A DNA stretch of 8,834 nucleotides, from the IMG/VR virus record IMGVR_UViG_2531839441_000001; one strand, given 5' to 3'. Each line of letters starts with the position of its first letter. The stretch's first letter is position 1. The stretch is from a virus (Monodnaviria; Loebvirae; Hofneiviricota; Faserviricetes; Tubulavirales; Inoviridae). This document shows positions 895 to 8,834 of this stretch, piece after piece. Both the position numbers and the translations under genes were made by a program. Under the pieces are notes generated by a model, which was not told the DNA's origin, did no database searches, and saw only the letters and a list, made by a program, of their open reading frames with translations.

Positions 895-990
895 AGTGCG
901 CATTAGATATATGCCGTTATGTTGAATCGGGTGCGGCGAAAATGGCGAGCGCCGCGCCCGATTTACACATAACGCTCTTGTGCGCATTGT
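895..990. other. dif-like forked stem-loop A, candidate XerCD attP-type site
   Basis: AGTGCGCATTA (895-905; E. coli dif XerC arm is GGTGCGCATAA) + 11 nt + TTATGTTGAAT (917-927; dif XerD arm is TTATGTTAAAT). 14-bp GC-rich stem 925-938 pairs with 950-963 around an 11-nt loop (939-949); 7-bp stem GTTATGT (916-922) with ACATAAC (967-973); outer stem through the palindromic TGCGCA core (897-902 with 981-986); asymmetric internal loop of about 10 nt versus 5 nt. Confidence 0.5.
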
Positions 991-1040
991 CAGGAGTCAT
1001 TTGTCTCACACGGACACCTTAATTCAGCTACCACAATGCC

Positions 1041-1135
1041 AGTGCGCATAATGTGTTACACGTTATGTTGAAAAGGCCGCTGCGATACTCTCCACCGCAG
1101 CGGCCTTTTTACACATAACGTCATTGTGCGCACTG
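1041..1135. other. dif-like forked stem-loop B, paralog of A, candidate XerCD attP-type site
   Basis: AGTGCGCATAA (1041-1051, 10/11 to dif XerC arm) + 10-11 nt + TTATGTTGAAA (1063-1073). Perfect 14-bp stem 1071-1084 with 1096-1109 and 11-nt loop 1085-1095; 7-bp stem GTTATGT (1062-1068) with ACATAAC (1113-1119); 11-bp outer stem 1041-1051 with 1124-1134 (one G-T). Same architecture as A, with different but still complementary distal-stem sequence (covariation). Confidence 0.5.
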
Positions 1136-1356
1136 GCCCTCAGTTCTCCGGTCTGAATTCGTCGCCCTGATAAGCAGGTTTTAGCAATGGGAAAACAGGT
1201 GGCTCCTGTTATCGATGCAGAATGTCCTGACCTCAGCCGTACCGCACCGCAGCGAGTGGAGGCGGAGAAGGACGACGGAGGAGGACGCCGACAACGACAG
1301 GAGCGAGGGCGGTGCGGCTGTTGTTCAAATTTGTTATATCGTAGCTTGCTATTTTA

Positions 1357-1722
1357 TTATGGCCTGTAATAGATATTTAAACTTTTAAATTCTTTGTATT
1401 GCTCCTTCGTTGGCGCATCTACTTTTATATTTTTCGTTGCCTTTACAACCATATTGCATAGCTCATAATCACCTTTTATATTTCGAATCCCGTTCATTTT
1501 TCCATCCATTTCTAAATTTATTTTGAATTCACATATTCTACCTTTGTATCGTTTTGTGTTTTCTTTTTCTATGTGCTTTTGTATTTCTTTTCTCACCTTC
1601 CCCAGATATTGGTCTTTTTTGCAGTTGTTATTATTGCATCTGTATGTTTCATAATTACTTTTTGCATTCGCGCTTAGTGTCACACCTATTAGCATCAATG
1701 CTATTTTCATTTTTTTCTTCAT
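1357..1722 (-). CDS. secreted TolA C-terminal domain (domain III)-like protein, 121 aa
   Basis: Minus-strand ORF with RBS GAGGG about 6 nt upstream of ATG. N-terminal signal peptide MKKKMKIALMLIGVTLSANA. Remainder (YLGKVRKEIQKHIEK...YKGRICEFKINLEMDGKMNGIRNIKGDYELCNMVVKATKNIKVDAPTKEQYKEFKSLNIYYRP) aligns by eye with the remembered E. coli TolA C-terminus (YAGQIKSAIESKF...YAGKTCTLRIKLAPDGMLLDIKPEGGDPALCQAALAAAKLAKIPKPPSQAVYEVFKNAPLDFKP), including both Cys and the terminal [FY]-[KR]-P. Lies in the AT-rich cassette. Confidence 0.65.
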   Translation of the reverse strand: MKKKMKIALMLIGVTLSANAKSNYETYRCNNNNCKKDQYLGKVRKEIQKHIEKENTKRYKGRICEFKINLEMDGKMNGIRNIKGDYELCNMVVKATKNIKVDAPTKEQYKEFKSLNIYYRP

Positions 1723-1784
1723 GTACCCTCATTGTTTTTGAAGCATTATTTTTATTTAACAATCTTCATATTGTCTGATGATTA

Positions 1785-1973
1785 TTATTTTTTTTGTGTG
1801 ATTTCATTCTTTGAAATCATATCTTGCTTTGCATCGTTCAAATATTGGTCTATCAGATAATTTACAATCTCTGACCATTTTGTGACTTTTCCTGTTTTTG
1901 CTGTGATGTCTACAGCTGCTCGTTCTATTCTCAGGTATCTCTCGTTGCTTATACCAATACTTTTTCTGCTCAT
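1785..1973 (-). CDS. small DNA-binding regulator, ribbon-helix-helix-like (candidate phage repressor)
   Basis: 62-aa minus-strand ORF with RBS AGAGGGTG 4 nt before ATG. N-terminal beta-strand-like basic segment (RKSIGIS) followed by two predicted helices (NERYLRIERAAVDI; WSEIVNYLIDQYL), typical of Arc/CopG-type RHH proteins. Divergent from the replication gene, like rstR/rstA in CTXphi. Confidence 0.55.
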   Translation of the reverse strand: MSRKSIGISNERYLRIERAAVDITAKTGKVTKWSEIVNYLIDQYLNDAKQDMISKNEITQKK

Positions 1974-4110
<2,137 letters not shown>

Positions 4111-4156
4111 CAATAACTGTCCCTGAGTGAGTTTTTAACGTTGAGGAGTCTGATTT

Positions 4157-4582
4157 ATGAGTGAGTTTTACGATAGTTTTCCGTTTCCTTCCCCTGATGG
4201 TTTTGCTTCAGGCATGACAATGGCGGGATATTTTATTCATGTGGCCGTTACAAATGATGATGAGTTAAAGCCCGGCAGTTCTCATTATGACCCTGAGGCA
4301 AAACCCAAATATGCCATTGTTATTGCCTATCCGTATGAGGACCGGAAATTAAAAGTTCGTCGTGAGGAGCATGAAAGATTTTCCTGTACTGAGGAGGACT
4401 TTAAATTCCTTAATTCGTGCTCTGACCTGCGGGGTAAACCTGTTTATCTCACGGTGGATGTTAATTCATGGTCAACCGGTTCAGAACGTCATGGTGTCTG
4501 GTATCGTTTTATTTCCGGTTCCATGAAACGTTTTGATGGTAAACCTGTTGGTCCTTTACTTCCTGGAAAGGAGAAACTGTAA
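4157..4582 (+). CDS. hypothetical protein, positional analog of the ssDNA-binding protein (gV / RstB)
   Basis: 141-aa ORF directly after rep with RBS GAGGAG 8 nt upstream of ATG; no hydrophobic segment. No sequence similarity to M13 gV recognised by eye, so the function is inferred from gene order only. Confidence 0.55.
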   Translation: MSEFYDSFPFPSPDGFASGMTMAGYFIHVAVTNDDELKPGSSHYDPEAKPKYAIVIAYPYEDRKLKVRREEHERFSCTEEDFKFLNSCSDLRGKPVYLTVDVNSWSTGSERHGVWYRFISGSMKRFDGKPVGPLLPGKEKL

Positions 4583-4605
4583 TTATCATTCGCCTTAATG
4601 AGATT

Positions 4606-4707
4606 ATGTCAGTAGCGGAATTTTTTATTCTTATTCTCTTTGGCGCTGTGCCAGTGCTGATATTTTCACTGGCTTTTATTGGTGGAGTCATTACGGGAAG
4701 GCGTTAA
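4606..4707 (+). CDS. 33-aa hydrophobic peptide, pVII-like minor coat protein candidate
   Basis: ATG 4606 to TAA 4705-4707: MSVAEFFILILFGAVPVLIFSLAFIGGVITGRR. Single membrane helix with basic C-terminus, same length as M13 pVII (33 aa, ends GGQR), in the gVII/gIX position between gV and gVIII. Below the 60-aa cutoff of the ORF track. Confidence 0.45.
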   Translation: MSVAEFFILILFGAVPVLIFSLAFIGGVITGRR

Positions 4708-4709
4708 TA

Positions 4710-4868
4710 ATGCTTTCTGAGGCAAATTTTCTTGTGACAATATCCGGCGTGGGTTCTTATCCTCCGCTTGTTGCACTTTTTGGTATATGGGCCATCAGCT
4801 GGCTTGCCGGTTTTGGCTTCGGGTATGTGTTTTCCCTGACAAAAACACTTTTTTCATCTTTTTTGTAA
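4710..4868 (+). CDS. 52-aa hydrophobic peptide, pIX-like minor coat protein candidate
   Basis: ATG 4710 lies 2 nt after the stop of the 33-aa ORF (TAATAATG): MLSEANFLVTISGVGSYPPLVALFGIWAISWLAGFGFGYVFSLTKTLFSSFL, ending TAA 4866-4868 just before the coat-gene RBS. Hydrophobic and small, as expected for pIX. Confidence 0.35.
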   Translation: MLSEANFLVTISGVGSYPPLVALFGIWAISWLAGFGFGYVFSLTKTLFSSFL

Positions 4869-4888
4869 TAATACAGGAGTTATATATT

Positions 4889-5164
4889 ATGTCTGTTCGT
4901 GAAAAAGCAGTTACGTTCGTAAAAAAACCTCTGGTCATTGCATCTTCCCTGATGCTGGCGTCCGGTCCTGTTCTGGCTGATGATGTGAGTTATACCCCCG
5001 GACAGGCAGTTATCAGTAAAGCGATGATTGACCCGGTGGTGAACTCCATTTTGTCAACGCTGGGCGTGGTGGGAACCGCAGCATTTCTTTTACTGGGCTT
5101 TGGCGTTTCTTTAATGATTGGTTTCCGCGTAGTGAAATCCCTCTTCAGAATGGCATCTTCCTGA
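4889..5164 (+). CDS. major coat protein precursor (pVIII-like), 91 aa
   Basis: RBS AGGAG (4875-4879) then ATG 4889. Signal peptide MSVREKAVTFVKKPLVIASSLMLASGPVLA; mature part has an acidic N-terminus (DDVSY), a hydrophobic core (GVVGTAAFLLLGFGVSLMIGF) and a basic C-terminus (RVVKSLFR), the canonical inovirus major-coat architecture. The track ORF 4787-5164 is an upstream extension of this frame. Confidence 0.8.
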   Translation: MSVREKAVTFVKKPLVIASSLMLASGPVLADDVSYTPGQAVISKAMIDPVVNSILSTLGVVGTAAFLLLGFGVSLMIGFRVVKSLFRMASS

Positions 5165-5185
5165 TGCTGTTTAATTAATAATACA

Positions 5186-5206
5186 GGGGCCGTGCGCCCC
5201 TTTTTT
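5186..5206 (+). terminator. rho-independent terminator after the coat gene
   Basis: GGGGC (5186-5190), loop CGTGC, GCCCC (5196-5200), followed by TTTTTT (5201-5206). Same position as the strong terminator between gVIII and gIII in Ff phages. Confidence 0.6.
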
Positions 5207-5219
5207 ATCAGAGGTCATT

Positions 5220-6254
5220 ATGCGGCTGTTATTTCTGCTTTTATTTCTTCCGTTCTTTTCATCTGCTGAATCATTCACAAGAACATTTGTGCCTTTTAAA
5301 TTAACTGAAGCTGATGAGGTCTGTATTTCCCGCCCGGCGCTGCAGGGGGTCACACTTTCCGGAGCGTTTCGCAGTGATAATACATGGTATGCCGTTCTGG
5401 ATGGCTGTATTTATAGGGCGACAGGTGTGATTGTTGGCAGTGAAACAGGTGATGTCGCCGCTGACTGGATCCCTGTGGCAGCTTATGAGCCTTCGGATGG
5501 TGATGGCGGGGACGGGGATAACAGCGGCGGCAACGGAGACAACAGTTCCGGTGATGATAATGATAACGCTGTATCCGGTCAGGTTTCTGCTGTCTATTTG
5601 CTTGAACTTGCGGATACACTGAGGAGACAGGAGTGTGATAATAATCCGCTGTTAATCTGTGGTTCGTTTTCAGGATATTATCCCCCGCGGAAAACTATGC
5701 CTTTATCTGAGTTGCGCGCTCACGCAAAATATTACTCCTGCACTCCCAACGGTTCCGGCTGGCAGAACCTTTATAACAGCACCTGTTATTTAAGGGAGGG
5801 TTATAAAATTGAGGACGGGAAAATTGTTCCTGACAACGGTAATGAGGAAGATAACAACGGTAGTGAAGATAATAATTCCGGCAGCGAGGGCGGTAATAAT
5901 TCCGGTGGTGGAAATACCGGGAGTGACGGCAATGATAATAACACCGGAAACGGGGATGACGGTCTTTCTGATGAGTGGGGAAGAAAAATATATTATCTGC
6001 TGAATGCCGGACTGCCTGCCATCGGAGACAAAATTGACAGCTTTCATAGCAGCTACATTGAACTTCAGAATAAAACCCTTGTTACCATGGATTATATGAC
6101 AGAAAGGCAGGTGAAATATTTACACAGCATTGATGAAAAATTTGGTGCACTGACAGAGCCGGATAAAAACTACTCTTCGTCTCAGGCGCAGTTTAACAGC
6201 ACCATGCAGGGGATTATTGAGAACGGTATAAGTTCAGTGGAGCAGGGCGTATAG
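5220..6254 (+). CDS. pIII-like adsorption/minor coat protein, 344 codons ending at an in-frame TAG
   Basis: RBS GAGG then ATG 5220; signal peptide MRLLFLLLFLPFFSSA. N1-like domain (DGCIYRATGVIVGSETGD...WIPVAAYEP; compare M13 pIII N1 EGCLWNATGVVVCTGDET...WVPIGLAIPE). Two Gly/Asp/Asn/Ser-rich linkers (about 5494-5568 and 5836-5965) flank a Cys-containing middle domain. Frame stops at TAG 6252-6254 inside the C-terminal domain. Confidence 0.85.
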   Translation: MRLLFLLLFLPFFSSAESFTRTFVPFKLTEADEVCISRPALQGVTLSGAFRSDNTWYAVLDGCIYRATGVIVGSETGDVAADWIPVAAYEPSDGDGGDGDNSGGNGDNSSGDDNDNAVSGQVSAVYLLELADTLRRQECDNNPLLICGSFSGYYPPRKTMPLSELRAHAKYYSCTPNGSGWQNLYNSTCYLREGYKIEDGKIVPDNGNEEDNNGSEDNNSGSEGGNNSGGGNTGSDGNDNNTGNGDDGLSDEWGRKIYYLLNAGLPAIGDKIDSFHSSYIELQNKTLVTMDYMTERQVKYLHSIDEKFGALTEPDKNYSSSQAQFNSTMQGIIENGISSVEQGV

Positions 6255-6293
6255 GACCGGATTCAGGAACTTATTCCCCTGATTGAAGATTAT

Positions 6294-6545
6294 GTGCCTG
6301 TGCTTAATTTTTCCGGCATTATTCCTCAGGGCTTCTTCGGCAATAACAGGGATGTCTGTGTGCCACTGGATTTAAGTTTTTCATTCCGGCCTTTCGGGGG
6401 GGAGGAAATGCCCTTTAATCTCTCCACGGAAGGTGTCTGTCGTATTTATGACGATTATCTGCGGGAGGTTATTCGCTTTTTTATTTATGTCATCACCGCA
6501 GTGTCATTAGTCATCCTGGTTGATAAATCATTATCCGGTAGGTAA
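6294..6545 (+). CDS. pIII C-terminal membrane-anchor segment, in the same frame as 5220-6254 downstream of the TAG
   Basis: Same reading frame as the pIII ORF (codons continue 6255 onward: DRIQELIPLIEDYVPVLNFSG...). Contains MPFNLSTEGVCRIYDDYLREVIRFFIYVITAVSLVILVDKS (compare M13 pIII C-terminus KPYEFSIDCDKINLFRGVFAFLLYVATFMYVFSTFANIL). Track start 6294 is a GTG, not a convincing independent start. Confidence 0.6.
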   Translation: MPVLNFSGIIPQGFFGNNRDVCVPLDLSFSFRPFGGEEMPFNLSTEGVCRIYDDYLREVIRFFIYVITAVSLVILVDKSLSGR

Positions 6546-6547
6546 AT

Positions 6548-6907
6548 ATGCCAGCTGTTTTTATGGGACTGACGGTCTTTTTTAAGGATATGATGATATT
6601 TCTGGTGCCGTTTATTTTCCGGTGCCTCCTGCGTTTTTTTCTCCTCAAGTCCGTGATTGCGCTGACCACGGTCGGGGTCTGGTATGGGTTTTACAGCGTT
6701 TTTATTTCCTTCGTGAATGAAAAGTTTTCTTCCCTGATGCTGACCTCTCCGGTATTCACGCATCCGGTCTGGATCAGCGTGTCCAGCCTGTTTCCGGATA
6801 ACCTTCCGGTCTGCCTGAATATTATTACCGGCGCATGGTCGCTGTATTTTGCCTTCCGGGTGAAGGCTTTCATTCTCGGAAAACTGACACTGGGTTTAAT
6901 GAAGTAG
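6548..6907 (+). CDS. pVI-like minor coat / membrane protein, 119 aa
   Basis: ATG 2 nt after the preceding stop; strongly hydrophobic multi-helix protein of pVI size (M13 pVI is 112 aa) in the gVI position between gIII and gI. Confidence 0.7.
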   Translation: MPAVFMGLTVFFKDMMIFLVPFIFRCLLRFFLLKSVIALTTVGVWYGFYSVFISFVNEKFSSLMLTSPVFTHPVWISVSSLFPDNLPVCLNIITGAWSLYFAFRVKAFILGKLTLGLMK

Positions 6908-6914
6908 GGGTGTT

Positions 6915-8171
6915 ATGGCTGTTTACTGGGTGACAGGAAAAATGCGCAACGGGAAGGGGCTGTTCTGCTCCATGGTGGCAAAACAGTTTTACCGTCGCGG
7001 ACACAGAATTGCGGCAAATTACCCGCTTGATACTGAAAAAATGGACCCGGCTTCATCGCATCCGGTGACCGTGCTTCCGGCCCGTCCTCGTCCTGAAGAT
7101 TTCTGGGCGCTGGGGCGTGGTTGTGATGAAAATGAGAAGGAGCGGTTTGGTGCGTTATTTCTGGATGAGGTCGGAACATGGCTTAACGGCACATCTTCCG
7201 GCCGGGAATACCTGGAATATTACAAATGGTTTGTACAGTCCGGGAAACTGGGCTGGGATGTTTATATTCAGGTGCAGGATGAATCCGCCGTTGACAGCAA
7301 AATATTTAAATCCACGGGTGAGCTGATTGTCCGCTGCCGTCGTCTTGATCGTATTCGTGTCCCGGTCGTGTCCGATATTCTGGAACTCTGCATGCCGGAT
7401 AAGTTTGGCGATACGGGCAGCCGGAAAGGGCTTCTGCCGCACCTGATTTCGGCAAAAATTTATATCGGTGTTCCCCGGGCGAATTCCCGTCCCAATGAAT
7501 CCCGCGTTTTTTATGCGCCGTCCTTTTACGGTATCCATCCGACGAACATGGTATTTGATGACGGAATGGAACTGCTCGGAACGGGTGAGCATCAGCGGGT
7601 CTGTGATATGCGCGCCATGTATTCCCTGTTGCCCGGCAGAACCCTCCGGCAGTTCCGGCGGCTGCGTGAGCGGCAGGAGAAAGGGGATTTGCAGACCTTC
7701 ACGGCAGAGGAACGAAAGGAGCAGCAACAGGCGCGCCGTAAAAAACTGTTGTCCGTTGTGGTGGGTGGCCTGTTTTTCTGGTTCTGGGGACGTCTTGTGC
7801 TGGATTTTTTCTCCGGCACACCTGATGAGCCGGCTGCAACGGTCATGCAGGCACCACCACAGGTAATCACCACTGAAAAAGCGCCGCCTGTACCACAGGT
7901 CGCATCTCCGGCAGAACTGCCGCTTTCCCGTGTCTGGCGGCTTTCCGGTCATATGCGTGACGGCAACAGGCAGGGGGTTTTTATTCTGCGCAGTAACAGC
8001 AACGTCACGCGGCTTGTGCGCAGTGAACTGCCGTATGAAGGGCTGCTTACTGTACTGGAACTGGATGGCGAACACATCACGTTTCACAGCGGGTCAGGCA
8101 GTGAACCTTCCCCGTCGCGTTCGTCCGGCAGCGGTGCCGGGGGGATGTCCGTTTCTCTCACCACACCATAG
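6915..8171 (+). CDS. pI / Zot-family phage assembly NTPase, 418 aa
   Basis: N-terminus MAVYWVTGKMRNGKGLFCSMV (M13 pI: MAVYFVTGKLGSGKTLVSV); LFLDEVGTWLNG (M13 LVLDECGTWFNT); KLGWDVYIQVQDESAVDSK...RCRRLDRIRVPVV (M13 KLGWDIIFLVQDLSIVDKQ...YCRRLDRITLPFV); one transmembrane segment LLSVVVGGLFFWFWGRLVLDFF, then a Pro- and Ser/Gly-rich periplasmic tail. Confidence 0.9.
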   Translation: MAVYWVTGKMRNGKGLFCSMVAKQFYRRGHRIAANYPLDTEKMDPASSHPVTVLPARPRPEDFWALGRGCDENEKERFGALFLDEVGTWLNGTSSGREYLEYYKWFVQSGKLGWDVYIQVQDESAVDSKIFKSTGELIVRCRRLDRIRVPVVSDILELCMPDKFGDTGSRKGLLPHLISAKIYIGVPRANSRPNESRVFYAPSFYGIHPTNMVFDDGMELLGTGEHQRVCDMRAMYSLLPGRTLRQFRRLRERQEKGDLQTFTAEERKEQQQARRKKLLSVVVGGLFFWFWGRLVLDFFSGTPDEPAATVMQAPPQVITTEKAPPVPQVASPAELPLSRVWRLSGHMRDGNRQGVFILRSNSNVTRLVRSELPYEGLLTVLELDGEHITFHSGSGSEPSPSRSSGSGAGGMSVSLTTP

Positions 8172-8180
8172 GGACAGAAT

Positions 8181-8834
<654 letters not shown>

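Follow-up and report, generated by a model that had tools for sequence, protein, structure and literature searches.

The window analysed here, a stretch of 8,834 nucleotides (nt), carries an inovirus prophage that spans positions ~895 to 8474. Over this interval, its identity to a prophage of E. coli UTAK-18 amounts to 99.6%, and that to the prophages of about 20 further complete E. coli genomes to 96-99%. Its genes follow the order Phage_GPA-type replication endonuclease, small open reading frames (ORFs), gVIII-like gene, gIII, gVI-like gene, Zot-family gI and, from position 8181, the GspD-type secretin gene gIV. The features, with the evidence for each in parentheses, are as follows:

895 to 916, plus strand: hybrid attL junction, combining a dif-like pseudo-site of a CPZ-55-like prophage (AGTGCGCAT TAGAT...) with phage attP (...ATATGCCGTTATGTTGAA) (match boundaries).
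2128 to 4110, plus strand: replication endonuclease of the Phage_GPA type, 660 aa, intact (PF05840; length as in relatives).
5220 to 6254, plus strand: truncated gIII ORF, 344 codons followed by TAG (ORF list, sequence, Pfam PF05357, PDB matches).
6252 to 6254, plus strand: amber codon TAG (codon 345), arisen from CAG (Gln) via a single C-to-T transition at 6252 (CAG in relatives).
6255 to 6545, plus strand: orphaned 3' part of gIII, 96 codons followed by TAA (frame, ortholog alignment).
6548 to 6907, plus strand: gVI-like gene, 119 aa, intact, starting 2 nt past the gIII TAA (ORF list, relatives).
6915 to 8171, plus strand: gI, Zot-family assembly ATPase, 418 aa, intact (PF05707; length as in E24377A).
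8181 to 8474, plus strand: remaining 5' part of gIV (secretin), codons 1-98 out of 406 (100% identity over 294 nt to the start of the 1221-nt gIV that relatives have intact).
8475 to 8834, minus strand: end of IS100kyp (IS21 family), interrupting gIV (end of the match to relatives at 8474; istB identity; PF01695).

The left flank of the prophage (1-894) belongs to a CPZ-55-like prophage (yffO/yffP homologs) situated between eutB and eutA. Relatives of the inovirus often lie in tandem and adjoin hipBA, i.e., they occupy dif. The prophage in the window is not at dif; it occupies a dif-like pseudo-site, which is present in unoccupied, likewise dif-like form in TOK-001 as AGTGCGCATTAGATTCATTACGTTAAAA (positions 6894-6925 of L014: AGTGCGCATTA-GATTCA-TTACGTTAAAA). 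This unoccupied site matches the window up to position 908 and the phage match begins at 895, a configuration that, from the sequence, looks like XerCD-type integration at a secondary site. The phage end itself contains several pairs of dif-like half-sites in both orientations (896-927, 966-993, 1043-1075, and 1109-1136), an arrangement that recalls the folded attP of CTXphi.

The replication module (window 2128-4582 versus positions 4638-6376 of the E24377A and TW10573 copies, L002 and L003) has been swapped between otherwise near-identical phages, such that the window encodes the 660-aa Phage_GPA-type endonuclease together with a 141-aa ORF, and E24377A and TW10573 carry a "replication initiation factor" gene; the structural module from ~4600 onward is common to all three. 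A 121-aa ORF on the minus strand (1357-1722) encodes an N-terminal signal peptide followed by a TolA C-terminal domain (PF06519, E = 4.5e-12), the host domain that is bound by pIII N1 during infection. The product of this ORF could be a periplasmic decoy, acting in superinfection exclusion or colicin protection, and in some relatives a DUF2726 gene fills its slot. At the 3' end of gI, a 1-nt indel at 8139 relative to UTAK-18 yields a gI of 418 aa instead of 422 aa and alters the overlap with the gIV start; as the 418-aa form also occurs in E24377A, this is a polymorphism and no lesion.

A preliminary description of this DNA had claimed that gIII is split by an in-frame amber codon, and our analysis bears this out: bases 5220-6545 form a single 441-codon frame encoding an inovirus pIII, which is broken solely by the TAG at 6252-6254 (codon 345). 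All sequence strings quoted in that description were found in the window. From the ATG at 5220, the 344-codon ORF runs to ...ISSVEQGV, where it terminates at the TAG, and the base directly 3' of this stop is a G, as had also been noted. Past the TAG, the frame remains open for 96 sense codons (DRIQELIPLIEDYVPVLNFSG ... VCRIYDDYLREVIRFFIYVITAVSLVILVDKSLSGR) up to a TAA at 6543-6545, with a hydrophobic segment at residues ~416-436 of the read-through frame. The preliminary description was thus right in placing the anchor-bearing C-terminal part of the protein beyond the stop. A random run of 96 codons is expected to be stop-free in only ~1% of cases ((61/64)^96). The stronger argument that the downstream frame is not due to chance is that its 96 residues correspond to the C terminus of intact 441-aa orthologs at 95/96 positions.

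The two parts of the gene divide the protein as follows. The truncated ORF begins with a signal peptide and the N1 domain, continues with a linker rich in acidic residues, Asn, and Gly, an N2-like region, and another linker, and ends ~94 residues into the C domain. The orphaned 3' part encodes the C-terminal hydrophobic anchor and, according to a low-confidence secondary-structure prediction, a beta-hairpin flanked by two conserved cysteines (C380...C407), and bears G412D at a position where Gly is otherwise invariant. The truncated polypeptide therefore lacks the membrane anchor, which intact orthologs carry within a single ORF of 441-442 aa. Upon inspection of the sequence and of the ortholog alignment, we saw nothing suggestive of a dedicated start for the orphaned part. 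Two candidates for internal re-initiation were rejected: an in-frame GTG at 6294 is preceded by just a weak GAAG, and an in-frame ATG at 6408 has a GGAGG merely 2 nt away and codes for part of the conserved GGEEM motif, so that intact orthologs have this ATG too.

Identification of the gene at 5220-6545 as that of pIII is supported by sequence similarity and gene order. Residues 3-73 match the N1 domain of Pfam PF05357 (Phage_Coat_A) with E = 4.6e-8 (~5e-8) and 33 bits versus a cut-off of 20.8, sequence and profile searches of the PDB returned the g3p N1 domains of fd, M13, and IF1, and gIII lies between the gVIII-like gene on one side and gVI, gI (Zot), and gIV on the other. The same PDB searches matched nothing outside the N1 domain, and the pIII of entry 8b3o was matched only in its N1 region. 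An AlphaFold2 model of a full-length ortholog, built with 16 closely related sequences, had a mean pLDDT of 40.6 and contained predicted helices, a hairpin at 385-403, and a terminal helix. This model is at most suggestive of an equivalence to the C domain of f1 pIII (helices, Cys-flanked beta-hairpin, M helix) and, as a weak prediction, would place the stop inside a C-domain helix. In a phage collection, neither gIII DNA (distant mode) nor the pIII protein (tblastn) found a match, so no characterised phage was usable as a reference; we take this collection to include IKe and I2-2, which the integrated inoviruses termed UPphi resemble. The linkers of pIII (window 5490-5570 and 5835-5965; GDGGDGDNSGGNGDNSSGDDNDN; NGNEEDNNGSEDNNSGSEGGNNSGGGNTGSDGNDNNTGNGDDG) are rich in Asp, Asn, Gly, and Ser, unlike the GGGS/EGGGS repeats of Ff and UPphi, and linker length differs among relatives.

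Comparison with relatives established the polarity of the mutation. Over 7580 nt, the window differs from its closest relative, UTAK-18, at 33 positions (99.6% identity), one of which is 6252, where T replaces C (TAG versus CAG). Codon 345 specifies Q in UTAK-18, E24377A, and TW10573, and all 6 relatives that were aligned at 6252-6254 read CAG. When complete E. coli genomes were searched with a 61-nt probe centred on the TAG, 54 places in 19 genomes were found, with a best match of 60/61; these copies read CAG, and none had the TAG. Among 17 cluster representatives, which reach down to 52% identity and include E. albertii and Edwardsiella, 15 have Q and 2 have K at this position. The stop is thus no conserved feature of gIII; the codon had been CAG and became TAG in the window lineage.

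We then considered the carriers of the stop. The window is identical to contig AQCT01000102.1 of draft assembly GCA_000354435.2, and the exact 344-aa truncated product was found on 13 contigs from at least 10 NCBI draft assemblies, as well as in the Logan assembly of SRR446850. The carriers are short-read draft assemblies with the WGS prefixes AQCO to AQCW and AQEX; because these prefixes are consecutive, they represent one sequencing batch and are evidently clonal. Their origin in a single short-read batch, together with the CAG of one sibling assembly, might suggest a sequencing or assembly artefact concealing a true CAG codon. However, the exact truncated protein recurs in all of these separately assembled genomes and in the independent Logan assembly, and an identical substitution error recurring across so many assemblies is very unlikely, such that we give the artefact explanation almost no credence. 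The preliminary description had itself envisaged that orthologs carry a sense codon and that this copy contains a sequencing error; the former is correct (CAG or AAG), and the latter is not. The TAG allele is thus real yet narrow in its distribution, being confined to one clonal group.

As the preliminary description rightly held, full-length pIII would require suppression of the stop. We found no tRNA or tmRNA gene and no Rfam family at gathering score in the window, and the 100 nt 3' of the stop fold no better than shuffled sequences (z = 0.47), which speaks against a stimulatory RNA structure. A UAG followed by G is reportedly not a notably leaky context in E. coli, which argues against efficient misreading here. 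A suppressor of the supE type would place Gln at this codon and thereby recover the wild-type residue. One may propose functional read-through, in which the UAG is usefully decoded by near-cognate tRNA-Gln or by a host amber suppressor (supE-type glnV) and both truncated and full-length pIII are made; with CAG as the original codon, Gln at this position would give back the wild-type sequence, and few copies of pIII suffice per virion (five in f1; PMC10175506). Against this proposal, the stop is conserved in no ortholog, the window offers none of the elements searched for, and gIV is disrupted, so virions could not leave the cell anyway. Nothing points to a suppressor in the wild host. We consider functional read-through extremely unlikely, and joint production of the two forms of pIII by such a route no less so; the suggestion of a read-through or suppression system in the preliminary description is unsupported, since the stop is unconserved and the window has neither a tRNA gene nor a downstream RNA structure. 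A conserved stop would have meant the first natural read-through pIII, a conclusion that the comparative data rule out.

A second lesion affects gIV. The match to relatives stops at 8474 and the junction with IS100kyp lies at 8474/8475, after gIV codon 98, with the gIV remnant running into the insertion sequence to form a 116-aa fusion ORF that ends at 8531. On the minus strand, an ORF at 8541-8834 encodes the IstB helper ATPase (PF01695, IstB_IS21) and shares 98-99% identity with istB genes annotated as IS100kyp on many plasmids. The product of gIV is the outer-membrane channel through which every virion has to pass. In Ff phages, virions cannot leave the cell without this secretin (PMC10175506), and because IS100kyp cuts the gene encoding it, this prophage copy is defective irrespective of gIII.

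The order of the two lesions was resolved by using the 116-aa gIV-IS fusion ORF as a unique marker of the insertion and by looking up its cluster for carriers. TAG-carrying contigs of sufficient length all show the same gIV-IS junction. Besides these, the look-up returned two contigs with an intact 441-aa gIII, namely, AQFI01000015.1 (strain BCE008_MS-13, copy L020) and AQDK01000088.1 (strain 2861200, copy L027). Over 4.65 kb, the BCE008_MS-13 copy differs from a TAG copy (L019) by one base, i.e., position 6252, at which BCE008_MS-13 has CAG. Since BCE008_MS-13 retains CAG with an identical junction, the IS insertion preceded the nonsense mutation: the insertion in gIV is older than the amber codon, and the prophage was already crippled when the latter arose. 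The IS100kyp junction, common to strains with intact gIII (BCE008_MS-13 and 2861200), is accordingly an older lineage marker.

Substitution patterns were examined by polarising changes with up to seven relatives. Private to the window lineage were 7 nonsynonymous (N) and 2 synonymous (S) substitutions, or 8 N if E158K is added, a change whose private status comes solely from the protein alignment; the other differences between the window and UTAK-18 comprised 5 N and 12 S. Fisher tests of the private against the remaining N:S counts yielded p = 0.018 (8 N) and p = 0.046 (the stricter 7 N), both resting on small numbers. E158 and G412 are invariant in 17/17 representatives and are replaced by K and D, respectively, in the window. 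These few counts may point to relaxed constraint on the window lineage. Both replacements also occur in a sibling with an intact ORF (K158 in BCE008_MS-13; D412 in both BCE008_MS-13 and 2861200), and so do not postdate the stop.

The sibling draft assemblies (copies L019-L027) vary from the window at a few sites (5510 and 7663-8105). Several of their alleles are known from other phage variants (e.g., 5510 T, 7727 G, 7835 G, 7933 A, 7964 T, and 7968 G), a pattern that may reflect a related inovirus in the same host, which either recombined with this copy or was mixed with it during assembly. The copy in strain 2861200 is a mosaic with 28 differences from the window, despite sharing the IS junction. 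L022 and L025 contain single-base deletions that resemble errors of draft assembly.

A co-resident phage is central to another explanation, in which a second, intact related inovirus, located for instance at dif, supplies pIII and pIV in trans. The copy in the window would then persist and might be packaged as a cheater or satellite, with its nonsense mutation neutral through redundancy. Related inoviruses are indeed often multi-copy or tandem in E. coli, occupying a median of 3 and up to 8 places per genome, and the sibling alleles at the six phage-polymorphic sites listed above hint at co-resident copies or recombination; such a rescue was also proposed by Shapiro and Putonti for a UPphi prophage with an early gene III stop (PMC7307601). 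On the other hand, a second copy could not be shown in the source assembly, and the allelic differences could be draft noise of the kind indicated by the single-base indels in L022 and L025. We regard a complemented copy as unlikely, and its persistence or packaging with a neutral stop as similarly so. In any case, the allele would still be one of loss of function, so complementation refines the reading of gIII as a pseudogene and does not replace it.

If expressed, truncated pIII should be a soluble periplasmic N1-N2 fragment and, by analogy with Ff phages, may affect Tol or superinfection. It could be argued that this anchorless fragment has been domesticated, i.e., that it is expressed and kept as a shield of the host against superinfection by related inoviruses or against Tol-dependent colicins, a role that periplasmic N-terminal fragments of pIII play in Ff systems. 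The truncated ORF does retain its signal peptide, and its N1 domain is a homolog of the N1 that binds TolA in fd and IF1; moreover, N-terminal pIII fragments are said to have well-established phenotypes in the Ff system. Yet the allele is limited to one clonal batch with a near-isogenic CAG sibling, with no sign of spread or recurrence, and there is no independent nonsense allele among 54 other copies. Moreover, full-length pIII itself confers exclusion in Ff, leaving truncation without an obvious benefit. Domestication therefore appears to us very unlikely, and it is a highly improbable proposition that the fragment, perhaps together with the TolA-domain protein (1357-1722), is expressed and modulates Tol or blocks superinfection or Tol-dependent colicins, with the allele under selection rather than drift.

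The combined data are very probably explained by the decay of a defective inovirus prophage, in which a nonsense mutation has recently abolished the function of gIII and made it a pseudogene. The disabling mutation is restricted to one lineage, orthologs are intact, and a second lesion, IS100kyp in gIV, is present. Against this reading, the remaining prophage genes (rep, gV-like, gVIII, gVI, and gI) are intact in length, so that any decay is recent. In the sequence of events that we propose, the inovirus would have integrated, presumably via XerCD, at a dif-like pseudo-site inside a CPZ-55-like prophage beside the eut operon. IS100kyp then entered gIV after codon 98, leaving a copy unable to export virions alone. 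On this crippled background, a C-to-T change turned gIII codon 345 from CAG (Gln) into TAG in one clonal E. coli sub-lineage. The expected main product would be a 344-residue pIII without its last 96 residues, and hence without the Cys-flanked hairpin and membrane anchor, and full-length pIII would arise only from background misreading of UAG. The data establish the mutation with its polarity and its confinement to one lineage, the IS lesion, and which of the two came first; relaxed selection on this copy, and the absence of any function for which the truncated protein would be kept, are what we infer. The locus is accordingly best labeled as a gIII pseudogene in a defective inovirus prophage, neither as two genes nor as a recoding site, and it provides a tidy, datable case of stepwise prophage decay, in which knockout of the secretin gene by an insertion sequence came first and a nonsense mutation in the attachment gene came second.

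With respect to known systems, the resemblance to programmed read-through, as in the A1 protein of Qbeta, is formal only, consisting of an in-frame stop in a virion-protein gene followed by a long open extension. Programmed cases preserve the stop among relatives and yield two functional products, whereas the stop in the window occurs in a single clone and is replaced by a sense codon in all relatives.

A closer likeness is to the gene III amber mutants and pIII C-domain truncations of Ff phages (f1/fd/M13), which share with the window phage a signal peptide, a TolA-binding N1 domain (PF05357), low-complexity linkers, a C-terminal anchor, and the gene order gVIII-gIII-gVI-gI-gIV. The predicted C-terminal hairpin and the anchor lost in the window would correspond to the parts that Ff pIII needs for virion incorporation and release; incorporation of f1 pIII depends on the Cys-flanked hairpin, the L4 linker, and the M helix, and truncations of the C domain abolish infectivity (PMC10175506). 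The two systems differ in that similarity is detectable in N1 only, the C domain of the window protein having no sequence match to f1 pIII, in that its linkers are Asp/Asn/Gly/Ser-rich and not GGGS-like, and in that the mutation is natural and lies in an integrated prophage, rather than being laboratory-made.

The UPphi phages offer the nearest parallel in kind. In these integrated enterobacterial inoviruses, early stops sometimes interrupt genes I-IV, gene III among them, and the authors who described a UPphi prophage with an early gene III stop considered it probably nonviable in the absence of complementation (Shapiro and Putonti 2020, PMC7307601). Like the phage in the window, they are filamentous prophages of E. 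coli and its relatives that integrate in dif/XerCD fashion. The window phage is nonetheless not a UPphi phage, given that its pIII has no tblastn match in the phage collection and that its replication gene is of the Phage_GPA type and accompanied by an accessory gene that is TolA-like. Premature stops in the core genes of integrated inoviruses are thus a previously described and ordinary phenomenon, to which the gIII amber codon described here adds a further case.
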